From the sequence record NZ_CP037828.1: a stretch of DNA of 46,053 bases; one strand, 5' to 3'. The notes below the pieces were generated by a model. It did not search any database. It was not told the DNA's origin and saw nothing but the letters and a program-made list of their open reading frames with translations. Within the stretch, counting starts at the first letter, position 1; the number at the start of each line of letters is the position of its first letter. Source of the DNA: a plasmid. Position numbers and translations under genes: made by a program. This document shows, piece by piece, positions 9,325-44,009 of the stretch.

Positions 9325-10611
9325 GTGTTGTTAATGGAATTAGATTTAGACTTAATAAAAGACATATATGACGATTGGAACTCTAATAAATCCGAATATG
9401 ATACTATGTATAAGTATTATAAAGGTGAAACGGATGCTATTAGCAACTATAAAATGGTTACCAAGAGATCTAATAATAAGATAAACACTAATTTCTTAAA
9501 AAAGTTTATTAATGAAGAAGTCGCTTATTCTCTTGCAAATAAGATTACCTATACAAGTAGATCTGGTGATGAGAAGATTATAAATGATTTAGAATACTAT
9601 ACTTGCCATTGGAGTAAAAAACATGACTCAGATTTATTGAGGTATGCACTATTATTTGGGCTTTGCTATGAACTTTACTATGTAAAAGATGATGAAATAC
9701 AAGTAAAGATAATCAAGCCAACAGATGGCTGTCATTATGAAAATGAAAATGGAGAAATAGTATGCTTTATTAGAGAGTTTACCAAAGGTTTCGAAGATGA
9801 CACGTATGTAGATGTATATGACAAAGAATATATATATCATTTTGATTCAAATTTCAAAGAAGTTGAAAGTCCTACAGTAAACAATATATTTGATGGAAAT
9901 GTTCCAATATCAATTTGCAAAAGAAGTGAAGAACTAGGAAAAAATACAATATTTAATGATATAAAAGGGTTACAAGATGCTTATGAAACTAATTTAAGTG
10001 ATATAAGTAATGAAATTAGTGATTTTAGAAATGCTTATTTAACCTTTTCTGGATGTAATATTAAAGAAGATGATTTGCCAAGGATGAAAGAACTTGGAAT
10101 ACTTCAAGTTAATGGAGATGGAAAAATAGAGTGGCTTATTAAAGATATGAATGATACATTTGTTCAAAATACACTATCTTCAATAAAAGAAAATATGTAT
10201 GAAATTACATCTCATATAAATCACAATGAAAAAATGCAAAGTAATACATCAAGTCTAGCAGTTATAGCAAGATTAATCAGTACAGAATGGATTTGTAGCC
10301 AAAATAATGATAGTATTGCAGATACTTTATTTAATAGGTACAAATTATTGTGCATTTGGCTTAATAAAAAATATGGTTTTGACTATGATTATAAAGATAT
10401 TAAGGCTAAATTTACCCCTAAGATACCACGTGATGATTTAGTTGTAGCAAATATATTAAGCCAACTTGGAGATAAATTATCTACTGAAACTGGCTTATCT
10501 CAACTAAGTTTCATTGATAATCCTCATGCTGAAATAGAAAAAGCTAAAAAAGAACAGGAAATAGTTTCAGAGGGAGAGATTTTATTAGATGAATCAAAAG
10601 ATTATAACTAA
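9325..10611 (+). CDS. Portal protein; the likely start is the ATG at 9343
   Basis: About 420 aa and immediately follows the terminase. Assigned by size and position. Confidence 0.6.
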   Translation: MLLMELDLDLIKDIYDDWNSNKSEYDTMYKYYKGETDAISNYKMVTKRSNNKINTNFLKKFINEEVAYSLANKITYTSRSGDEKIINDLEYYTCHWSKKHDSDLLRYALLFGLCYELYYVKDDEIQVKIIKPTDGCHYENENGEIVCFIREFTKGFEDDTYVDVYDKEYIYHFDSNFKEVESPTVNNIFDGNVPISICKRSEELGKNTIFNDIKGLQDAYETNLSDISNEISDFRNAYLTFSGCNIKEDDLPRMKELGILQVNGDGKIEWLIKDMNDTFVQNTLSSIKENMYEITSHINHNEKMQSNTSSLAVIARLISTEWICSQNNDSIADTLFNRYKLLCIWLNKKYGFDYDYKDIKAKFTPKIPRDDLVVANILSQLGDKLSTETGLSQLSFIDNPHAEIEKAKKEQEIVSEGEILLDESKDYN

Positions 10612-17260: not shown

Positions 17261-20200
17261 ATGAGTTCTAATACAAAAGTCCTACAAGCAATAATAAAAA
17301 TGAGAGATGAAGCAAGTTCAACATTAAAAAGAGTAGCAGCAAATACTAGAGCTCTACATGATTCATCTTCTCAAGCATCAAGAACATTAAATAATGTTCA
17401 AAGTAATTTAAAAAGCGTTGGAACTAGTGCTTTAAAAGCAGGAGGTCTTATCACTGCTGGAGTTGGTGGCGCATTTGCAGCTGCAACTAAAGTTGGAACA
17501 GAATTTGAAAGCGCTATGTCGCAAGTTAAGGCTACATTTGGAAATTCCTTAAAACCAGGAGATTTTGAAGCTCTGTCTAAGGCTGCTAGAGATGCCGGAA
17601 AAGCTACAACTAAAACTGCTGCTGATTCTGCTAATGCACTTCAATACATGGGGCTTGCTGGATGGGATGTTCAAAAGTCAATGCATGCCTTAATGCCAGT
17701 GCTTAATTTATCAGAAGCAGCCTCTATGGATCTTGGTCTAGCATCAGATTTAGTAACTGATAGCATGAGTTCTATGTGCTTAGAAGTTGATAAGGTCAGT
17801 AAAAGTGGAAAAGTATTAGCCGGTGCAGGTTTAAGTGAGTATTTAGATAAAGTTGCAAATGCATCTACTAAATCAAATACAAGTATACAACAGTTGATGG
17901 AAGCGTTTAATGTTGCAGGTGGTACATTTAGCAATTTAAAAGTTCCGCTTTCAGAAGCAACTGCTATCATGGGAATACTTGCAAACAGAGGAGTTAAGGG
18001 TACAGATGCAGGCCATGCTTTAAACTCTATCATGGTAAATCTTACAACAGGTGCAGGCCAAGCAGGTAAGGCAATGAAAAAGCTAGGCGTAAGTGCATTT
18101 GATAATCAAGGTAAATTTAAAGGTATGTCAAATGTACTTAAAGAAGTTGCAAATAAAACAAAAGATATGACTGATAAACAGAAAAATTATTACTTAGCAG
18201 CTATAGGAGGAAAAACTCAATTAAAAACGTTACAAAAGTTACTTGATGGTGTGGGAAATGAATATGATAGTTTAAAGAAAAAAATAGATAATTCAAAAGG
18301 TGCTTTAAAAACAATGTCTGATGTAATGAAGGATAATACTAAGGGTGGACTTGCAACCTTAAAATCAGCCCTTGAAGAAACTGGAATTACTATTTACTAT
18401 CAACTAAAGCCAGCAATAGCATCTGTAGTTGATAATTTAACTAAAATGACTGTTTGGTTTAATAATCTAAGTGAACCAATAAAAAGAGTCATAACTAATG
18501 TAATGCTTTCAGTTGGAGCATTTGGAGTACTTTTATTAACTATAGGGGCTGTGTCTTTAATTGTTTCAAAAGCTATAGGTATATTTGGCTTTTTTGTTCC
18601 AATAATATTAAGAGCAAAAGTTGCTTTCAGAGCTTTTGTAATTGGTATGAAACCATTAAGTGCAGTATTTTTAGCTGTAATGGGTCCTATAGGATGGACT
18701 ATAACAGCTGTAATTGCATTGTCAGTAGCATTTACCATTGCTTATGCTAAATCTGAAGTATTTAGAAATAAGGTTAATTCATTAGTAAAATCATTTACAG
18801 AATTTGCAAAACCTATAGTAAATTTTTGTATGCCTGCACTTAAACAATTAGGGGAAAAATTTAAAGAGTTGTTATCAGCATTTGGTCCACTATTTGCGTC
18901 TATTTTAAACTTAGGAAGTGTAATAATGAAGGTACTAGGACCTGTTTTAATTGGCGTAATAGGTTTTCATATAGCAAAATTAGTTTTGATTTTATCTACT
19001 CTGGCAACTGCCTTTAAAGCTGTAGTTGATACTATAACTAATGTATTAAATGGTCTAGCATCTATTTTAAATGGAGTATTTAATTTAATTATAGGTATTG
19101 TCACAGGCGATAGTAAAAAGATGATGAATGGAGTTAAACAAATATTTGATGGTGGAGTAAAAATTATAAAATCAATTTGGAAAGGTTTCATAGATTTTGT
19201 AACTGCTCCTATACAAGCTATAGCTGATATAGCTGACAGCTTATTTAAAGATAAAGCTAAATGGCTTACAGATAAGTGGAAAGATTTAAGAACATTCTTA
19301 GAAAATCCAATTGAAGCAACTGCCAAAATATCTACTAAAACAAATGTAAACATTCCAGGAAGTAAAGCAGCTGATGCAGCTGGGAAATCTACACCAAATA
19401 CAGGTGGATTAAAACAAACAATAGCAAATCTAAAAGGTTCATTTAGTGATTTTAAAACTTTTATTAAACCTATGACAGATTCTATAAGTCAAGGAGTTGA
19501 ATCTGGAAAAACTAAATTTACAGAACTGCAAAACAAAATATTAAATGATGTTAAACCTGCATTAAAGGTCCTAGAGGATTCTGGAGTAAATTTTAAGGAT
19601 AAGTTTAAGGAGTCAATAACTTCAATAAAGGATAAATTTAATGAATTAAAGAACATATTAGCTGGAAATATTAAAACAAATATAGATAATTTAGTAAAAG
19701 CATTTGAACCTTTAAAACCTCATTTAGATAATTTGAAAGAGTGTTTTGATAAGGTTAAAAAAGCGATTACTGATTTTTTTACTCCAGCCAAACAGGTTGG
19801 AGATACAGTAAACAAAGTAAGCCAACCAATGGATAGTGTTAAAAAGTCTACTGATGGAATTAAACTTTCTTTCCAAAGTTTAACTCAAGCACTTGCTCCT
19901 GTTAAAGCTTGGTTTCAAGGATTTATGCCTTTCCTATCACAAATAGGACAACAACTTTTACCATCTATAGGAATTGCAATAGCTGGTGTTGTTGGCGGAA
20001 TAATTTTAGCATTTACATGGGTTTTAAATACATTAACCGCAATAATAACAACAGTATCTGGAATCATAAATGGAATTATGTCTTTTATATCTGGAATTAT
20101 TAATGTTATTATGGGGCTTATAACAGGAAATGCTGATCAAACTATGGATGGACTTAAACAAATATTTGATAGTGGAGTAGGTGTAATAAAATCAATTTGG

Positions 20201-20650
20201 AATGGCCTTGTTGATCTAGTTAGTGGTGTACTGGAACCTGTAATAGATCTTGCTGACTCATTTTTTAAAGATAAAGTTAAAGGGGTAAAAGAAGCTTGGA
20301 ATAAACTTAAAGATTTCTTTAAACATCCAATTAAGGGAACAATAGAAATATTTAAAAAAGGTCCTAGTTTACAAATTGGAAAAGGTGCAGATGCTGCTGG
20401 CAAAAGTCCAAGAAAAGCATTTGGTATAAATAGAGTTCCTAGAAATGATTATTTAATTAGGGCACATGAAGGAGAGAAACTTTTAACCAAACAAGAAGCC
20501 AATCAATACAAAAGAAATAGTTCAAATGGAAGTTTATTTCTTGATAAATTGGCTGATACAATAATTGTAAGAGAAGAGGCTGACATAGATAAAATTGTAA
20601 GAAAAATAAACAAAAAAATATCTCTTGCAAAAGTTGGAGGCGTTTTGTAA
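17261..20650 (+). CDS. Tail tape measure protein
   Basis: 1129 aa, Ala/Gly-rich, with TM helices in the middle and an internal duplication ('GVKQIFDGGVKIIKSIW...' and 'GLKQIFDSGVGVIKSIW...'). Confidence 0.85.
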   Translation: MSSNTKVLQAIIKMRDEASSTLKRVAANTRALHDSSSQASRTLNNVQSNLKSVGTSALKAGGLITAGVGGAFAAATKVGTEFESAMSQVKATFGNSLKPGDFEALSKAARDAGKATTKTAADSANALQYMGLAGWDVQKSMHALMPVLNLSEAASMDLGLASDLVTDSMSSMCLEVDKVSKSGKVLAGAGLSEYLDKVANASTKSNTSIQQLMEAFNVAGGTFSNLKVPLSEATAIMGILANRGVKGTDAGHALNSIMVNLTTGAGQAGKAMKKLGVSAFDNQGKFKGMSNVLKEVANKTKDMTDKQKNYYLAAIGGKTQLKTLQKLLDGVGNEYDSLKKKIDNSKGALKTMSDVMKDNTKGGLATLKSALEETGITIYYQLKPAIASVVDNLTKMTVWFNNLSEPIKRVITNVMLSVGAFGVLLLTIGAVSLIVSKAIGIFGFFVPIILRAKVAFRAFVIGMKPLSAVFLAVMGPIGWTITAVIALSVAFTIAYAKSEVFRNKVNSLVKSFTEFAKPIVNFCMPALKQLGEKFKELLSAFGPLFASILNLGSVIMKVLGPVLIGVIGFHIAKLVLILSTLATAFKAVVDTITNVLNGLASILNGVFNLIIGIVTGDSKKMMNGVKQIFDGGVKIIKSIWKGFIDFVTAPIQAIADIADSLFKDKAKWLTDKWKDLRTFLENPIEATAKISTKTNVNIPGSKAADAAGKSTPNTGGLKQTIANLKGSFSDFKTFIKPMTDSISQGVESGKTKFTELQNKILNDVKPALKVLEDSGVNFKDKFKESITSIKDKFNELKNILAGNIKTNIDNLVKAFEPLKPHLDNLKECFDKVKKAITDFFTPAKQVGDTVNKVSQPMDSVKKSTDGIKLSFQSLTQALAPVKAWFQGFMPFLSQIGQQLLPSIGIAIAGVVGGIILAFTWVLNTLTAIITTVSGIINGIMSFISGIINVIMGLITGNADQTMDGLKQIFDSGVGVIKSIWNGLVDLVSGVLEPVIDLADSFFKDKVKGVKEAWNKLKDFFKHPIKGTIEIFKKGPSLQIGKGADAAGKSPRKAFGINRVPRNDYLIRAHEGEKLLTKQEANQYKRNSSNGSLFLDKLADTIIVREEADIDKIVRKINKKISLAKVGGVL

Positions 20651-28259: not shown

Positions 28260-28517
28260 ATGGATAATTTAATAAGTTTTATACCAGAGCAGTTGCTAAT
28301 TTTAGTAGCTGCTCTTTATGTTATAGGAGCAGGTTGCAAGAAGTATAAACAACTAGATAATAAGTATATTCCAGTAGTATTACTAGCACTTGGAATAGGT
28401 TTCTCAATATGGATGTTAGGATTAAATCCTGTTGCAGTCTTACAAGGCGTGATTTGTTGGGGTATATCAATAGGTATAAATCAAACTTACAAACAACTAA
28501 AGGAGGAAAATAAATAA
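28260..28517 (+). CDS. Holin
   Basis: 85 aa, two to three TM helices, charged C-terminus, immediately upstream of the endolysin. Confidence 0.55.
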   Translation: MDNLISFIPEQLLILVAALYVIGAGCKKYKQLDNKYIPVVLLALGIGFSIWMLGLNPVAVLQGVICWGISIGINQTYKQLKEENK

Positions 28518-29320
28518 TGAAAATAGCAATAGTACCAGGGCATACATTAAGTGGAAAAGGAACAGGAACAACCGGGTATATAGATGAAGGAAAAGAAAAC
28601 AGAATACTAACTGATTTAATAGTAAAATGGTTGAAACAAGGTGGAACTACTGTGTATACTGGAAAAGTAGATAAATCTAATAACTATTTAGCAGAGCAAT
28701 GTCAAATAGCCAATAAACAAGATATAGACTTAGCAGTACAAATCCATTTCAACGCAAATAAAACAACACTAAACGCAATGGGTACAGAGACAATATACAA
28801 AACTAACAATGGTAAGGTATATGCTGAAAGAGTTAACAAAAAACTATCAACAATATTTAAAAATAGGGGTGCAAAATCGGATGCAAGAGGTCTTTACTGG
28901 CTTAAGCATACAAAAGCTCCAGCGATATTGATTGAGGTGTGCTTCGTAGATAGTAAAGCAGATACAGACTATTATATCAGACATAAAGACATAGTTGCTA
29001 AGTTAATAGCAGAGGGTATATTAAATAAAAATATAAATAACAAAGAGAATGGTGAGGGAAAAATCATGTACAAACATACAATCGTTTATGATGGAGAAGT
29101 TGACAAAATACCTGCAACTGTAGTTGGCTGGGGCTATAATGATGGGAAAATACTGATATGTGATATAAAAGATTATGTACCAGGTCAGACGCAAAATCTT
29201 TATGTCATTGGTGGTGCAGCATGTGAGAAGATTGGTTCTATGACTAAAGAAAAATTTACTATGATAAAGGGTAATGATAGATTTGATACACTTTACAAAG
29301 CATTAGATTTTATCAAATAA
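28517..29320 (+). CDS. N-acetylmuramoyl-L-alanine amidase endolysin (Amidase_3 family) with a C-terminal cell-wall-binding domain
   Basis: 'MKIAIVPGHT...GKGTG' and 'DLAVQIHFNA' Amidase_3 motifs. Confidence 0.8.
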   Translation: MKIAIVPGHTLSGKGTGTTGYIDEGKENRILTDLIVKWLKQGGTTVYTGKVDKSNNYLAEQCQIANKQDIDLAVQIHFNANKTTLNAMGTETIYKTNNGKVYAERVNKKLSTIFKNRGAKSDARGLYWLKHTKAPAILIEVCFVDSKADTDYYIRHKDIVAKLIAEGILNKNINNKENGEGKIMYKHTIVYDGEVDKIPATVVGWGYNDGKILICDIKDYVPGQTQNLYVIGGAACEKIGSMTKEKFTMIKGNDRFDTLYKALDFIK

Positions 29321-31174: not shown

Positions 31175-32080
31175 TTATTTCATCATTTTTTTGTATCCTT
31201 TTGCATTTGCAAAAACATGTTTATCTACATCACTCATGACTATTATGCCAGGTATATTCTTTTTAAATGCTTCACCTAACAATTTAGCACCTCCACCCAT
31301 AACGACAACAGCAGAAGTTGATATTGGGTAATTTAATTTCAATTCATTATATATTTGTTTAAATAATCCAACAGACGCATCTATATTTTTCTTTATATCT
31401 TGTTTTTCACCATTTAGGTAAAACCCTTTGTCTATGTAGTCTTGTATTTTTTCTCTTTTTATCTCAACTTTACCCAGAAATCTTTCATCCATTTCAAGAG
31501 ATTTTTTTATTGCATCATATATATTTATCGTTCCAACATTTACAGAATATGGATCAGTCGCTTTATTCCCTTGTACAAGCGCAATATCTGTTGTCTTTCC
31601 ACCAATATCAACTAAAACAACATCTCTTCCTGCAATTTGGTCAACTATGTCTTTTGCATAATATAAGTATCCTGTAACTCCCTCTGGAAACACTTGAACA
31701 GATCTTATTGTTATATCTCTTTTAGTAGTTTCATTTCCTTTTGCAAATTCAACATGATATTCTTTTCCTTGTAATTTTTCAATCAAATCTTTTCTTAATC
31801 CTCCAAATTGCTTCACTGGTAGACCTAATGCTAGATCAATAACTTCATCATCTGTATTTCTGCATATAGCCCCAAGTAAAAGTGGTAAGAAGTTTTCTTT
31901 CTCATATTTAACTATATTTATTTCCTCGTCACCTTCGCCTAAATAATATGTTTTATTACCTATTTTAATGCTATCTGAATCTGAACCAAAGTTTTTTACC
32001 TCTGTAACTTTACTTTCAAAAATATCATCTGTACTTGTTTTAACTGCATAATTTCCAATATCTATACCTAATTTACTCAT
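31175..32080 (-). CDS. parM: ParM/StbA-family actin-like plasmid segregation ATPase
   Basis: Phosphate-1 'LGIDIGNYAVK', phosphate-2 'LVDIGGKTTDIALV', and the 'VVMGGGA' motif. Confidence 0.7.
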   Translation of the reverse strand: MSKLGIDIGNYAVKTSTDDIFESKVTEVKNFGSDSDSIKIGNKTYYLGEGDEEINIVKYEKENFLPLLLGAICRNTDDEVIDLALGLPVKQFGGLRKDLIEKLQGKEYHVEFAKGNETTKRDITIRSVQVFPEGVTGYLYYAKDIVDQIAGRDVVLVDIGGKTTDIALVQGNKATDPYSVNVGTINIYDAIKKSLEMDERFLGKVEIKREKIQDYIDKGFYLNGEKQDIKKNIDASVGLFKQIYNELKLNYPISTSAVVVMGGGAKLLGEAFKKNIPGIIVMSDVDKHVFANAKGYKKMMK

Positions 32081-32098: not shown

Positions 32099-32302
32099 TT
32101 ATTCTAAACTTCCAAAATCAAAATTGTTAGCTGGATCTTCTATTTCTTTTTTCTGTTCAACTACAGCATTATCCTTTTTTTCATTCATTTTTTCCCAAAC
32201 GAGTTCTTTTAAATAAGCTGTAGCTGATAATTTCTCATCTAAAAACTTTTCAATTGCTTTTTCTTTATCATTGTTTTTAAATGTTAGAACTATCCTACTC
32301 AT
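32099..32302 (-). CDS. Small RHH-like protein, first gene of the partition operon
   Basis: 'MSRIVLTFKNNDKEKAIEKFLDEK' ribbon-helix-helix-like N-terminus with an acidic tail. Confidence 0.35.
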   Translation of the reverse strand: MSRIVLTFKNNDKEKAIEKFLDEKLSATAYLKELVWEKMNEKKDNAVVEQKKEIEDPANNFDFGSLE

Positions 32303-32506
32303 TCAACCACTTCCTTTTTTGTAAAATATTATAAAATTTATTAATATTTACATATATTTTACCAAATTTCACATAGTAATTCAATAGATTCATAAGATAT
32401 TTTTTATAATATTTTATAATTTTTTACGTAATTTTATAATTTTTTATAAAATTTATCATTTTGTATATAATTAAGAACACACTTTTTATAATTTTGCATA
32501 AAAAAA

Positions 32507-32545
32507 AGAGTGTTTCATATATTTCTAAACACTCTTTTCTACTTT
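32507..32545. terminator. Hairpin terminator/insulator upstream of the partition operon
   Basis: 10-bp perfect stem AAGAGTGTTT/AAACACTCTT followed by T-rich sequence. Confidence 0.5.
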
Positions 32546-32747
32546 TTATAATTATCTAATTGTAAAAGAAGCTTCAGCTGGACTAGAGAATAATATAATA
32601 CCTCCTGTACAAACACCTTTTCCTTTTATATTTTTACAAGATTATATAAAATTATTCTTTAATCAATTAAAGTGTTTTTCTATTTCTTAATAATAAGAAA
32701 TGATATAAAATTGTATCATTTTAAAGATTTTGTGATATAATAAAAGC

Positions 32748-32878
32748 AAGAAGAACTACAATCTATTTAGGCGTAGAGTGGAGTTCATAATAAACGTAGT
32801 TTATTTTTTGAATTTAAATATAAATTTAAATTCAACCTGTAAGTCACTCTTTGCACGAGAGTGGCTTTTTGCTTTTTT
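32748..32878 (+). ncRNA. Candidate type I antitoxin antisense RNA
   Basis: Extended -10 promoter TGATATAAT at 32733-32741. Plus-strand terminator (CACTCT/GAGAGTG plus T-run, 32843-32878) lies inside the 3' end of the toxin ORF. Confidence 0.35.
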
Positions 32879-32953
32879 GAATAGTTCACTGATTAAGTAA
32901 ACTACCACACTAGCTGTTAAACTAGCTAAAACATTAAACAAAAAGTTATCCAT
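32801..32953 (-). CDS. Candidate type I toxin, a 50-aa membrane peptide
   Basis: 'MDNFLFNVLASLTASVVVYLISELFKKAKSHSRAKS...' has a hydrophobic N-terminus and a Lys-rich tail. SD GGAGG can pair with CCUCCC in the 5'UTR. Strong TTAACT-17-TGgTATAAT promoter at 33048-33076. Confidence 0.5.
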   Translation of the reverse strand: MDNFLFNVLASLTASVVVYLISELFKKAKSHSRAKSDLQVEFKFIFKFKK

Positions 32954-33072
32954 GTAACTCACCTCCCCTCGAATCGTTGGGAGGATAATCTTTTGTACAT
33001 GAACTCCACTCTATAGATTGTATATTACGCTCTTCTTGCTAAATTTAATTATACCATATTTTGTAATATCAG

Positions 33073-33807
33073 TTAAGAGTTTGCACTACAATAATCAGAA
33101 AGCTTGTTCCACTCACAATCAACCCCTATTATTTTAAGAATATCATTGACTTGGCTATTTAAATCTTTAATATCTGATTTAGACATTAAAGGATCTTTCA
33201 TTATTTCATTTAGAAAAATACTATCAATGATTAAACATACATTTTCTGATAAATATTCACGTTTTACTGAGATTACTGTTCCAACTGTACTTTCTTTTAG
33301 TGTCTTATATGCTACACTCAATATGCATGGTTCTAAATTAATTCCTTCTAGTACTGTTTCAAAGTAATATTTTATTCTTATATTTTCATTTCCAATAAAT
33401 ATTTCTTCATTGCTGCTTATCTTCTTTAATTTTCTCATTATGCCTAACATCTTAGCATTCACTTCATAATTTATTCCATATCTCTTTGATGCCAAACTCG
33501 ACATTAAGTCTCTTTCTAAATAAATTACCCACTGACCATTATAGGAAAATGATGTTTTAGCGATATCCATTTCTCCTTTTCCAGTAATATTAAATTTAGG
33601 CTCTAGTTTATTTATTAAGTAAATCTCATAAAAATCCATAGTATATTTATTATCTAATTCCATATACTCAAGTCTTAAATTCTTATTACACCAATTTTCT
33701 TTTTTATTACTTAAATGACTAGCGTGTCTATCACAGATATTCTCTGTTTTCCCAACGTATAAACATTCTTCCGTATCTTGATTAATATATTTATAAACAT
33801 AATACAT
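33073..33807 (-). CDS. GIY-YIG domain protein, paralog A
   Basis: 'YVYKYI...ECLYVGKTENI..RH..H' and 'YLINKLEPKFN' GIY-YIG core residues. Confidence 0.6.
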   Translation of the reverse strand: MYYVYKYINQDTEECLYVGKTENICDRHASHLSNKKENWCNKNLRLEYMELDNKYTMDFYEIYLINKLEPKFNITGKGEMDIAKTSFSYNGQWVIYLERDLMSSLASKRYGINYEVNAKMLGIMRKLKKISSNEEIFIGNENIRIKYYFETVLEGINLEPCILSVAYKTLKESTVGTVISVKREYLSENVCLIIDSIFLNEIMKDPLMSKSDIKDLNSQVNDILKIIGVDCEWNKLSDYCSANS

Positions 33808-33826: not shown

Positions 33827-34627
33827 TTAATTGTCATATTTACAGCCCTTATATATTTCAAATAATTCTTGCCATGTATATCCAACTTCTAGTATGTGAA
33901 AAATATCCTCTATTTGTTGGAAAATCTCAGTAATTTTATATTCAAATGTTGGCATTAATTCCATTAAATTGGCCAAAGATCCAATCCTAATCTCTAATGT
34001 TATATTTATAAGTATTTTTTTATTTGTTGCTGTATATTCTTTCCATCTGGGATAAACTGAAATCAAAGAACAACTTCCAAATCTTTCTAATGTTTCAAAA
34101 TCATATGATATCAAATTAATATCTAATTCATTCTCACAAAATTCTATATCCATATTTTCAAAGTTATATAGCACACTTAAAACATTATTTTCATATAACA
34201 TTTCAACCTTGGCATCTAACTTTTCAATTCTCTTTAAAAAATTAATAGATTTTTTACTTACTTCATATTTCATATCTATCTTTCTTTCTCTGAATCTTCT
34301 TTTTCCCTTTGTCTTTTCCTTAAAATCTTCTTCTGAATATGTACTCCAATCTTCTTCCTTGTAATCAAAAAAGATGTGTTCAGTATCCATATCACCTTTA
34401 CTTAGTTTATTAAATATTGGATTTAGTTCATTTATTAAATAAACTTCAAAAAAATCCATATTATATCTACGTGGAAGTTCAATATATTTTAATATTAATT
34501 CTTTAGTACACCAATCTTCTTCTTTATTACTCAAATGAGATGAATGCCTTGCATATATATCTTCTGTTTTTCCAACGTATAAACATTCTTCTGTAGCTGG
34601 ATCAATATATTTATAAACATAATACAT
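33827..34627 (-). CDS. GIY-YIG domain protein, paralog B
   Basis: Same N-terminal GIY-YIG domain. About 75 bp of near-identical DNA at the 5' ends of both genes. Confidence 0.6.
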   Translation of the reverse strand: MYYVYKYIDPATEECLYVGKTEDIYARHSSHLSNKEEDWCTKELILKYIELPRRYNMDFFEVYLINELNPIFNKLSKGDMDTEHIFFDYKEEDWSTYSEEDFKEKTKGKRRFRERKIDMKYEVSKKSINFLKRIEKLDAKVEMLYENNVLSVLYNFENMDIEFCENELDINLISYDFETLERFGSCSLISVYPRWKEYTATNKKILINITLEIRIGSLANLMELMPTFEYKITEIFQQIEDIFHILEVGYTWQELFEIYKGCKYDN

Positions 34628-34646: not shown

Positions 34647-35834
34647 TTATTTATAGTAATATCCTTCTTCATTTACTAGACCTTGATCAAATAAATTTCT
34701 CCTAACAGTTTCAAGTCTGACAGGATCTTTGCTATAATCAACTTCTCTTTCTTCTTTTTTAACATCTTCATCATCCCAATATTTATCTAATTCTTCTTTA
34801 AACTTTAAATCATCTTTTTGATGAATTATAACTTCACTTATTTTATTTGAAAGTGTTGATTTAAAAAAATCATAATTCTTTGTATTTATAATATCAGTAT
34901 TATCTCTTTCAAATGCTATAGCAATAGACTTATTAAAAGCATTCAGATAAACATCTTTCTTAAAATCAAACTCTTTAAAATCTTCTTTAAATAGTTTAAT
35001 CGTCCCTGTTGTAAAAATATTTTCATTTGGTATATAAAAACTAAAAGACACTTCATTGTCCTGCTTCTTTTTAGGTATATAATCTTCAACCAATATATCT
35101 TTATCAAAATATTTTCTAGGTTCATAATCTATCACAGAAAAAATTATTTCATCTATTTTTCTATTTTTTCTTTTTTCTTCTTTTATTGAAACAACCATGT
35201 TGCCTTTTTTATTTATTTCATTCATTGCTCTTTTTAGAACATTTTGTTTAAAATATTTATACTCTGGATATACATTATCTTTTAATTTCAAATAAAATCT
35301 TAATTCATCTAACTTATATTTTATCTCCACTTCCTTATTTTCTCTGCTCCATAGTCTAAATAAAGTGTATAACCTCTGAGTATATGCACCTCTAAAATTA
35401 AATAACACTGATAAATTAATAGCTGTATATCCATTTTTCTTTTTCTGCATTTTTACAAAATCAGTTATATGATTGTATAGAACTTCATGCATCATAATTG
35501 TATAAATTTGGTCTGTATGATCCAATTCATATGTATTAATTAAACCACTTCCAAAAGTTTTTAACTTGCCAGTTGTCTCTTCTATATAGTCAAATTCCAA
35601 AACACTTTGTTGAAACATGTTCAAAATTTCTTTTATATTTTTATGCTCATAATCATTATTGTTTTTCATAAATACTTTTAGTTCTTCTTTTGATATAGTT
35701 GTAACATAAGATGAATTTTGCTGTTTCTGAGCATTAAAAAGTATTTTGTAAAATAATTTATTTTCCACATTTGTAAAATCATATTTACTTTTTATTAAAT
35801 TATTTGGTTGCATTAAAATTTCTTTTTTTTCCAA
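34647..35834 (-). CDS. Rep_3-family plasmid/theta replication initiator
   Basis: N-terminal 'QPNNLIKSKYDFTNVENKLFYKILFNAQ' typical of the Rep_3 family. Iterons lie directly upstream. Confidence 0.65.
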   Translation of the reverse strand: MEKKEILMQPNNLIKSKYDFTNVENKLFYKILFNAQKQQNSSYVTTISKEELKVFMKNNNDYEHKNIKEILNMFQQSVLEFDYIEETTGKLKTFGSGLINTYELDHTDQIYTIMMHEVLYNHITDFVKMQKKKNGYTAINLSVLFNFRGAYTQRLYTLFRLWSRENKEVEIKYKLDELRFYLKLKDNVYPEYKYFKQNVLKRAMNEINKKGNMVVSIKEEKRKNRKIDEIIFSVIDYEPRKYFDKDILVEDYIPKKKQDNEVSFSFYIPNENIFTTGTIKLFKEDFKEFDFKKDVYLNAFNKSIAIAFERDNTDIINTKNYDFFKSTLSNKISEVIIHQKDDLKFKEELDKYWDDEDVKKEEREVDYSKDPVRLETVRRNLFDQGLVNEEGYYYK

Positions 35835-35897
35835 AATCTATCACCTCATATAAATTATAATACCTAATTTATAAAAAGGTCAACTATTTTTGAAAGA

Positions 35898-36041
35898 CGC
35901 TCACCTTTGACCCTTAAAATGATGACCTTTGACCCTTAAAATGATGACCTTTGACCCTTAAAATGATGACCTTTCGACCCTTAAAATGATGACCTTTGAC
36001 CCTTAAAATGATGACCTTTGACCCTTAAAATGATGACCTTT
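35898..36041. repeat. Iteron array: six perfect 22-bp direct repeats GACCCTTAAAATGATGACCTTT plus a partial seventh copy (candidate replication origin)
   Basis: Read directly. Copies at 35909, 35931, 35953, 35976, 35998 and 36020. Confidence 0.9.
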
Positions 36042-36253
36042 CATCTCTGAAACCTAGATATACCAATTATTATAGCTTGTCTAAAAACTATTAAAGACTT
36101 TAAAAACTGTTTTAAAAACTATTAAAGACTAGAAAAGATGTTCTGAACTATTCTTTTTTTATATTAAAAAACTTTAGTATTTATTTTTCTAGTATACTTT
36201 AAACACTTACTAAAAATAATTTCTTATAAAAGATTGGAGATGAAGAATTTTTT

Positions 36254-42677: not shown

Positions 42678-44009
42678 ATGAATTACTCTTTAGAAGCAGA
42701 GCAAAACATTCTAGGAAGTTTTCTTATAAATGACTCTATAGGTTACAAAATAAGGGAATTAAAAGAAAATGATTTCTACTTTGAGTCACATAAAATTATT
42801 TTATCTTGCATGAAGAAAATAATTGACTCAAATAAACCACTAGATCTTTTGCTTTTAAAAAATGAATTAGAAAAAATAGATAGATTAGTAGACGTTGGAG
42901 GAGTTAGTTACATTACCAGTTTAACAACTATAGTCATAACTACTTCAAACATAGATCACTATATAAAAATCATAAAAGAGAAGTTACTTAAAAGACAAAT
43001 TTCAGAGCTAGCAAATGAATTAATTAATAATTCAAATTCAGATACAAGTATAGATGAATTGATTGTAGATATAAACGATTTAAAAGCACTTGTGACGACG
43101 AGCAGTAGTATAAATGGTAATTATATTGACGCATCAAAAATAAAACGTGAAAAAGGCGTACACAAGTCCATAGACACGGGTTTTAATAAACTAAACAATA
43201 TGCTAGATGGATTTAGATATGGAACTCTTACAATTTTGACTGGTAAACCTGCATCTGGTAAATCAACTATAGTTAACCAGTTTATAGCAGAAGCAATTGC
43301 AAATAAAGAAAAAGCATTTTTGTATTCTGGAGAATTACCCTCTTTCATGGCTATGGATTGGTTTAGAAAAACTGTAGCTAATGATTATCACATAAAAGAA
43401 TATAAAAGTGTCTATGGAGGAACATACACAGATATTCCAGATTACGCCGTTGAGCTTATATCAGACTGGATAGAAGATAAATTTTTTCTCTATGATGAAG
43501 ATGCAATAAGTGATGAAGTAAATCTACTAAATACCATAGAACATTTATATTTAAAAAAAGGGGTTAGGCTCTTTGTTCTTGACAATCTAATGACAATAAA
43601 AACTGGCAATAAGGCAGATAAATATGAGAGACAAGAGCAGATAGTAAGCAACTTAAAAAATCTCGCTAAAAAATATAACTTAGTAATAGTTTTAGTTGCA
43701 CATCCTAGAAAAAATATGGGTGACATGAAACCAACTATGTATGATGTGTCTGGAGCAAGTGAGATTGTTAATTATGCAGATTATATTTTATCAACTTACA
43801 GAGTTATTGATGAAGAAGAAGAGGCAGACGACACTTATTTATTAATTTTAAAAAATAGAATAACAGGAAAACAGAATATAAGTTTCAAAATGAATTTTTC
43901 AGAAAGAAGAAAAAGACTTTACACAACTAGTGAAGAGTTAAATAGAGATTACAAATATGATGTAAATAAACAATATGTGCAAGCAGAAATTCCAGAAGAT
44001 GTATTTTAA
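42678..44009 (+). CDS. dnaB: Replicative DNA helicase, DnaB family
   Basis: DnaB N-terminal 'EAEQNILGSFLIND'. Walker A 'GKPASGKST'. Walker B 'LFVLDNL'. Confidence 0.85.
   Translation: MNYSLEAEQNILGSFLINDSIGYKIRELKENDFYFESHKIILSCMKKIIDSNKPLDLLLLKNELEKIDRLVDVGGVSYITSLTTIVITTSNIDHYIKIIKEKLLKRQISELANELINNSNSDTSIDELIVDINDLKALVTTSSSINGNYIDASKIKREKGVHKSIDTGFNKLNNMLDGFRYGTLTILTGKPASGKSTIVNQFIAEAIANKEKAFLYSGELPSFMAMDWFRKTVANDYHIKEYKSVYGGTYTDIPDYAVELISDWIEDKFFLYDEDAISDEVNLLNTIEHLYLKKGVRLFVLDNLMTIKTGNKADKYERQEQIVSNLKNLAKKYNLVIVLVAHPRKNMGDMKPTMYDVSGASEIVNYADYILSTYRVIDEEEEADDTYLLILKNRITGKQNISFKMNFSERRKRLYTTSEELNRDYKYDVNKQYVQAEIPEDVF

Follow-up and report, generated by a model that had tools for sequence, protein, structure and literature searches.

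Does a short open reading frame (ORF) on a Clostridioides difficile plasmid (sequence record NZ_CP037828.1) encode the toxin of a type I toxin-antitoxin (TA) system, and what does the inverted repeat at the borders of this locus contribute? The window analyzed here, i.e., the whole stretch of 46,053 nucleotides, is by its sequence a C. difficile phage-plasmid of ~46 kb. The ORF listing contains, on the minus strand at 32953..32801, an ORF of 50 amino acids plus stop codon (MDNFLFNVLASLTASVVVYLISELFKKAKSHSRAKSDLQVEFKFIFKFKK). Exactly this peptide, with a hydrophobic helix and a Lys-rich tail, had been described in an initial annotation of the DNA as the toxin of a candidate type I TA system. 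In matching plasmid records, the ORF is labelled merely "hypothetical protein" (WP_009894412.1 in NZ_CP020425.2). By analogy with studied homologues, the locus is very probably a functional C. difficile type I TA system of the CD0956.2/CD2517.1-RCd family and works as those homologues do. The system is thus of a known kind, already published and represented by a curated NCBI model.

Comparison of the peptide with C. difficile type I toxins, which the initial annotation had proposed as a check, revealed a match to the NCBIfam equivalog NF047374.1 (CD_typeI_toxin) with 70.2 bits against a cutoff of 60. The alignment runs from end to end (peptide residues 1-50 on profile positions 1-51 of 51) and establishes, at the level of sequence, membership of this toxin family. 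The hydrophobic N-terminal helix of the peptide comprises residues 4-22, and the Lys-rich tail contains Lys or Arg at 11 of the last 25 positions. Toxins of the family have been characterized by a length of 50 to 53 amino acids, a hydrophobic N terminus, and a Lys-rich, charged C terminus (Maikova et al. 2018, PMC5961336). A further match of the peptide (E = 1e-25) is to phrog_738, whose function is unknown. The Pfam scan of the peptide yielded no family at E <= 1, and the toxin is therefore not Fst, Hok, or another Pfam toxin. Relatives in a large protein collection were found in Clostridioides only, several of them named "type I toxin-antitoxin system toxin", and the exact window peptide is recorded on about 1000 public contigs.

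In total, 64 related loci were collected, and 42 segments equivalent to the toxin mRNA were aligned, 39 of which are distinct. The counts given below refer to these 39 distinct homologues for the toxin mRNA, to 28 distinct sequences for the antitoxin, and to 28 distinct variants for the peptide. The ORF is intact, with 49 to 54 codons, in 41 of the 42 homologous loci; because of this conservation, a chance ORF is excluded. The ratio of nonsynonymous to synonymous substitution rates (dN/dS), determined for codons 1-25, a stretch without antisense overlap, ranged from 0.06 to 0.59 in ten computable comparisons. An alternative toxin start is the GTG at 32962, three codons upstream of the ATG. A GTG start is also found in the copy of phage phiCD119 (L054, AY855346.1), which is frameshifted to 40 amino acids and unannotated in its record; either the old record contains a sequencing error or the copy has decayed.

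Homology extends beyond the ORF. At 70 to 95% identity, 55 plasmid records and 59 phage records contain a cassette of ~330 bp, and chromosomal copies occur too. The central ~370 bp of the locus were recovered at 70 to 78% identity from 59 C. difficile phage records and from further plasmids. Where copies are located in unrelated contexts, homology begins and ends just beyond the two -10 boxes described below, and therefore the unit is the ~330-bp cassette. Among the homologues is gp33 of phiCD38-2, explicitly named a TA by Peltier et al. 2020 (PMC7699646), who also report plasmids of C. difficile and P. sordellii that carry homologues of the toxin. Over 600 bp around the locus, the window is 99.8% identical to C. 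difficile plasmids of ~45-48 kb, including NZ_CP020425.2, NZ_CP011969.1, and NC_017176.1 (strain BI1). One truncated cassette was observed (L029; IMGVR_UViG_2879510609_000012, about 455-698). Its homology ends inside the terminator region, at window-equivalent position 32856, and unrelated sequence takes the place of the toxin C terminus and of the entire antitoxin promoter.

The toxin promoter on the minus strand consists of TTAACT (33076-33071), a 17-nt spacer, and TGgTATAAT (33056-33048). The consensus scan gave it a score of 10/12, with the TG of an extended -10 box present, in agreement with the promoter initially annotated at 33048-33076. The TGnTATAAT boxes of this promoter and of the convergent antitoxin promoter are invariant in all aligned homologues; the -35 regions are not conserved. 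Each transcription start site (TSS) was placed about 7 nt beyond its -10 box, and transcript ends were deduced, with a tolerance of +/-3 nt, by analogy with the CD0956.2 mRNA, which has been mapped by rapid amplification of cDNA ends (RACE). The predicted toxin mRNA of ~296 nt (32745..33040, minus strand) would consist of a 5' untranslated region (5'UTR) of ~87 nt, the 50-codon ORF, and a 3'UTR of ~55 nt.

The Shine-Dalgarno (SD) sequence GGAGG is positioned at 32966-32962, 8 nt before the toxin ATG. The pairing of an upstream CCUCCC segment with the SD, already suggested in the initial annotation, was recovered as a predicted anti-SD hairpin at 32956..32990 (minus strand), in which CCUCCC (32984-32979) pairs with the GGGAGG of the SD. 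This hairpin has an energy of -15.0 kcal/mol (z = -3.0), and it is conserved: in the aligned homologues, 84.6% of the cells of the helix are paired, and three pairs are changed on both sides. An example of such compensation is CUUCCU/AGGAGG in the CDMH1 group versus CCUCCC/GGGAGG in the window. At the other end of the mRNA, local folding predicted a hairpin (32786->32753, minus strand; -8.2 kcal/mol) followed by the U-rich tract UUCUUCUUGCUUUUAUUA; together, they are the probable toxin terminator.

Analysis of the plus strand revealed the extended -10 box TGATATAAT of the antitoxin promoter at 32733..32741, where the initial annotation had placed it, with a predicted TSS at about 32747. The predicted antitoxin RNA, which is RCd8/9/10-like, is ~132 nt long (32747..32878, plus strand), contains four predicted hairpins, and folds with -36.6 kcal/mol (z = -5.2). 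This size is consistent with the antisense RNA of ~130 nt proposed at the outset. The proposed overlap of ~78 nt has to be corrected, as complementarity spans the entire predicted antitoxin and the final ~132 nt of the toxin mRNA, i.e., 78 nt of the ORF and ~55 nt of the 3'UTR. An intrinsic terminator ending about 32878 had also been claimed, and a stem-loop at 32841-32867 (-13.6 kcal/mol) with a T-run to 32877 (TTTGCTTTTT) was found there on the plus strand, inside toxin codons 26-38. No second terminator-like site was found in 1.2 kb, and shuffled sequences lead to an expectation of 0.1 such sites.

All 28 distinct antitoxin sequences retain the 5' hairpin and the terminator, with compensatory changes in five pairs, and the T-run stands behind the terminator in every one of them. 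The arms of the terminator (32841-32867) code for KSHS and KSDL, toxin residues that are invariant. L065 retains the stem as CCGCUC/GAGCGG though its amino acids differ, and therefore RNA structure constrains the protein at the terminator. The palindrome UUGAAUUUAAAU-AUAA-AUUUAAAUUCAA (32808..32835, both strands) is located inside the ORF, where it encodes EFKFIFKF, and is predicted to form a hairpin in both RNAs; it is a candidate kissing-loop site. Two further candidates in this region were rejected. A plus-strand GTG ORF of 40 codons (32778-32900) was not accepted as coding; it has no SD and acquires a stop after 5 codons in L024. The 5' arm of the inverted repeat, considered as the terminator of a long antitoxin form, showed no convincing hairpin by eye, the loop being missing. 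A search of the whole window against Rfam 15 (4227 families) yielded no match at the gathering score. At the locus, frnS was the only Rfam hit with E <= 1 (23.6 versus 60 bits, E = 0.1), and it was taken as chance.

The anatomy of the locus was compared with that of the CHARACTERISED systems CD0956.2/RCd10 and CD2907.1/RCd9, and the geometry of convergent transcripts agrees. According to Maikova et al. 2018, the CD0956.2 mRNA has a length of 298 nt and its 3' end lies at the start nucleotide of RCd10, RCd10 and RCd9 occur in a short form of 134 nt and in a long form of 283-299 nt that ends at the toxin TSS, and the 5'UTRs of the studied C. difficile toxins, whose ribosome-binding site is described as sequestered, measure 83-88 nt (83 nt in CD0956.2) (PMC5961336). 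The values predicted for the window are ~296 nt for the mRNA, ~132 nt for the antitoxin, and ~87 nt for the 5'UTR, compared to 298, 134, and 83 nt for CD0956.2/RCd10. As in the RCd family, the predicted antitoxin of ~132 nt lies fully inside the 3' end of the toxin mRNA. With CD0956.2-RCd10, CD2907.1-RCd9, and CD2517.1-RCd8, the window locus has in common the toxin family, the sequestered SD, and the location on a mobile element. Chromosomal copies adjoin CRISPR arrays and respond to SigB and to biofilm signals. The window copy differs from them in its position beside parM and rep, and no CRISPR array is found beside the TA locus in the window. Unlike the studied RCd copies, the window toxin carries Glu23. 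The family match above the cutoff, the homology of the cassette, and a geometry like that of the RACE-mapped pairs support the type I TA reading of the initial annotation. Every feature that defines the family and can be checked in a sequence is present in the window.

Based on these similarities, the following mode of action can be proposed. The minus-strand extended -10 promoter would give rise to the ~296-nt toxin mRNA, in which the local CCUCCC/GGGAGG hairpin would lock the SD, so that the nascent mRNA would be poorly translated. The 50-amino-acid product, a predicted one-helix membrane peptide with a Lys-rich tail, would arrest growth. The convergent plus-strand extended -10 promoter would produce the ~132-nt antisense RNA, ending at the terminator within the toxin ORF, and this RNA would pair with the 3' third of the mRNA. 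Pairing would probably start at the complementary 7-nt terminator loops or at the AU-rich palindrome at 32808-32835; the idea of a loop-loop initiation stems from Maikova et al. 2018 (PMC5961336). The long duplex would then be degraded, as by RNase III in studied homologues, and the toxin would stay off. Cleavage of such a duplex by RNase III in vitro is known for RCd9/CD2907.1. The antitoxin is expected to decay faster than the toxin mRNA, so that cells that have lost the element would be poisoned and the phage-plasmid would be stabilized. In homologues, half-lives of toxin mRNA and antitoxin are 35 versus 13 min and 89 versus 8 min. Homologous modules lift plasmid retention from 1% to 22-64% (PMC7699646). 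In addition, the conserved inverted repeat of ~45 nt may fold the 5' end of the finished toxin mRNA onto its 3' end, which would protect both ends and aid the longevity of the mRNA.

The inverted repeat reported in the initial annotation is real, with coordinates that were 1 to 2 nt off, as the perfect core is located at 32774-32788 and 32999-33013. It is not a 17-bp bracket around the module. The gapped arms extend over 32745-32788 and 32999-33040, about 45 nt each, and each arm continues into its own -10 box. The arms represent the shared first ~45 nt of both predicted transcripts. The 5' arm (32999..33040, minus strand) constitutes the first ~42 nt of the toxin mRNA, and these nearly copy the first ~45 nt of the antitoxin (32747-32788), from which they differ mainly by the absence of an 8-nt hairpin loop. 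The 3' arm (32745..32788, minus strand) constitutes the 3' end of the toxin mRNA. Since the two 5' leaders are near copies, the 5' end of the toxin mRNA is complementary to its own 3' end. The repeat is conserved family-wide. No second cassette was detected in the window; the conserved 15-mer, with up to 3 mismatches allowed, matched only the two arms and the partner of the local hairpin.

Folding of the full-length toxin mRNA resulted in a minimum free energy (MFE) structure of -103.7 kcal/mol (z = -9.2), and 0 of 200 shuffled sequences were as stable. In this structure, 36 bp join the 5' to the 3' end, with the anti-SD hairpin inside. The same closure, with 29-40 pairs, was predicted in the MFE structure of 39 of 39 distinct homologues, and the energy of the 5'/3' duplex ranged from -31 to -51 kcal/mol versus about -14 +/- 3 kcal/mol with the 3' arm shuffled. 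For related sequences and a structure derived from the window sequence, 94% of the cells of the fold-back alignment are paired versus 37-49% with the partner slid by 1-3 columns, and seven pairs are changed on both sides, a number reached by 0 of 500 shuffles. In the phiCD38-2 group, three adjacent pairs switch jointly (A-U to G-C, C-G to U-A, and A-U to U-A), converting the arms from GCAAGAAGA/UCUUCUUGC into GCAAGAGAA/UUCUCUUGC. Two of the 3'-arm substitutions of this group hit mismatch positions of the local terminator hairpin, and therefore the local hairpin does not explain them. The local 3' hairpin with its U-rich tract could act as a terminator and then yield to the far more stable fold-back.

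These predictions suggest that the toxin leader may be a built-in antitoxin mimic, with a panhandle of 36 bp that zips the 5' end onto the 3' end. This interpretation is tentative, and it is held to be slightly less probable than its opposite. That the fold-back protects the ends of the mRNA and masks part of the antitoxin target is our own inference, put forward with a similar degree of reserve. The panhandle, if it forms, would keep exonucleases away from both RNA ends, a possible explanation for the half-lives of 35-89 min. It would also hide the 3' target of the antitoxin 5' hairpin, leaving only internal loops for kissing, and it would turn the toxin mRNA itself into an RNase III substrate. 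For C. difficile systems, a 5'-3' interaction is not described in the two primary papers, the 2019 review, T1TAdb, or the 2021 review, and the family-wide 5'-3' pairing of the toxin mRNA is thus apparently undescribed.

Closure of a toxin mRNA is familiar from other type I systems. In hok/Sok of plasmid R1, the fbi element closes the full-length toxin mRNA from 5' to 3' end, and the mRNA is stable and inert. In AapA1/IsoA1 of Helicobacter pylori, the full-length toxin mRNA is likewise closed by a 5'-3' long-distance interaction and is stable and inert, and T1TAdb uses such interactions as family descriptors. With its predicted 36-bp fold-back and a closure predicted in all 39 distinct homologues, the window locus may work like hok and AapA1, a resemblance and not a membership, as there is no sequence relationship to hok/Sok or AapA1/IsoA1 (no Pfam match). 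In contrast to hok and AapA1, the SD of the window mRNA is predicted to be masked by a nearby upstream anti-SD and not by the 3' end, and the antitoxin is predicted to pair with the mRNA 3' end and not with the 5' leader. Since the antitoxin targets the 3' end, the fold-back would compete with the 5' third of the antitoxin. Unlike for hok and AapA1, we know of no 3' processing step of the toxin mRNA in the C. difficile family.

The par locus of Enterococcus faecalis pAD1 (Fst/RNA I-RNA II) is a plasmid-borne type I TA system of a Gram-positive host with convergent transcripts, repeats at the 5' ends, and post-segregational killing. There, one bidirectional terminator is shared, whereas each RNA of the window has its own predicted terminator; read on the minus strand, the plus-strand terminator is without a U-run, and it is not a shared terminator of the par type. 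In par, the 5' repeat of one RNA is complementary to that of the other, and the repeats extend over the start region. The 5' ends of the window RNAs, in contrast, are in the same sense, and each is complementary only to the 3' side of the other RNA. A Pfam match of the window toxin to Fst was not obtained. In TxpA/RatA and BsrG/SR4 of Bacillus subtilis, as in the window, the antitoxin overlaps the 3' end of the toxin mRNA (~120 nt there). The duplexes of these modules are cut by RNase III and the modules are located on prophage-like elements; their toxin sequences are unrelated to that of the window. To our knowledge, neither of them has a shared 5' leader or a terminal inverted repeat.

The repeat of ~45 nt could alternatively be a feature of the DNA, i.e., a duplicated promoter and leader under gene conversion or recombination-prone cassette ends. 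The end of homology just outside the -10 boxes, by which the repeat marks the cassette ends, and the inclusion of the promoter in both arms would fit such an origin. The duplex of the complementary strand is also nearly as stable as that of the toxin strand, with means of -40.2 and -42.2 kcal/mol, respectively, and an advantage of the toxin strand in only 26 of 39 homologues. However, the arms have never been homogenized, and in every homologue just one of the two arms contains the 8-nt loop. Among the non-Watson-Crick positions, G.U on the toxin strand (17 pair columns) outnumbers A.C (8 columns, of which 3 are alignment-shift artefacts), a count made on related sequences. The two phiCD38-2-group changes at local-hairpin mismatches are compensated in the distant 5' arm, and the cassette has no associated transposase or recombinase. 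An explanation at the DNA level is considered less likely than not.

For the cassette as a whole, the main role might be defence (abortive infection or exclusion of phages and plasmids) or stress-linked growth control and not post-segregational killing. Abortive infection and persistence are named in reviews among the proposed roles of TA systems, chromosomal copies are located near CRISPR arrays and are SigB and biofilm responsive, and as a phage-plasmid the host element faces competition from other phages. Nevertheless, stabilization of plasmids and prophages is the only tested function of homologous modules, the window copy sits between partition and replication genes, and the window is without a CRISPR array. 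The two roles are not mutually exclusive, and defence or stress control as the main role appears rather improbable. A further question is whether the window copy is attenuated or decaying. Its peptide has Glu23 (GAA, 32885-32887), which is rare: among the 28 distinct variants, residue 23 is Lys in 24 (usually AAA) and Leu, Ile, or Arg in three, and Glu23 occurs only in the window-type peptide. The toxin -35 overlaps the stop codon of the GIY-YIG nuclease gene at 33073-33807; the consensus scan of 1.2 kb found no terminator between this gene and the toxin promoter, and therefore transcription of the upstream operon may run on into the toxin gene. Truncated or frameshifted copies are also known elsewhere (L029 and phiCD119). 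The exact Glu23 peptide on about 1000 contigs nevertheless represents a common, maintained allele, and the window shows no damage in the ORF, the SD, either promoter, either terminator, or the repeat, so that decay or attenuation is very unlikely. Several observations besides Glu23 weigh against a functional type I TA system. The antitoxin promoter has no recognizable -35 and was hence missed by the consensus scan, the short antitoxin leaves the SD uncovered, and the hairpin of the toxin's own terminator is weak (-8.2 kcal/mol). The transcript ends were placed by analogy with the RACE-mapped loci of strain 630, and transcription, toxicity, stability, neutralization, and maintenance are extrapolated to the window copy from studied homologues. 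With these reservations, a functional type I TA system of the CD0956.2/CD2517.1-RCd family is still the preferred reading.

The cassette has the parM operon on one side and, on the other, two GIY-YIG nuclease genes, with rep beyond these. Phage-plasmid genes of the window encode an SPP1-type portal (9325-10611), a tape measure protein (17261-20650), and an amidase endolysin (28517-29320). ParM (31175-32080) is encoded by a partition gene, and the replication side includes DnaB (42678-44009) and a Rep3-type initiator (34647-35834, minus strand). Directly upstream of the initiator gene, seven tandem 22-bp repeats (TTTGACCCTTAAAATGATGACC) were found at 35884-36061; these are probably iterons of the plasmid origin. 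The two tandem paralogous GIY-YIG nuclease genes (33073-33807 and 33827-34627), which are located between rep and the toxin gene, have a 269-nt repeat with 78% identity in common. In comparison to NZ_CP020425.2, the window is without ~0.9 kb between a gene for 67 amino acids and the TA cassette (32302-32620). The extra ~0.9 kb in NZ_CP020425.2 carries two small hypothetical genes, and homology to the window begins at 32620. A perfect 12-bp inverted repeat (AAAAGAGTGTTT / AAACACTCTTTT) with an A-run and a T-rich stretch on its flanks was observed at 32504-32538, between the side of the parM operon and the TA locus, and looks like a bidirectional terminator. AT-rich repeated motifs of the TTTTATAA type at 32400-32470, upstream of the 67-amino-acid gene and parM, are possibly a partition (centromere-like) site or a promoter cluster.

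As a consequence of this analysis, the "hypothetical protein" WP_009894412.1 of the plasmid record can be renamed type I toxin. The cassette probably aids the persistence of a widespread phage-plasmid of ~45 kb in clinical C. difficile lineages. For specialists, the one point of possible interest is the terminal inverted repeat found across the family. If the fold-back is real, it would account mechanistically for the unusual stability of the toxin mRNAs in this family and would align C. difficile with the hok and AapA1 paradigm.

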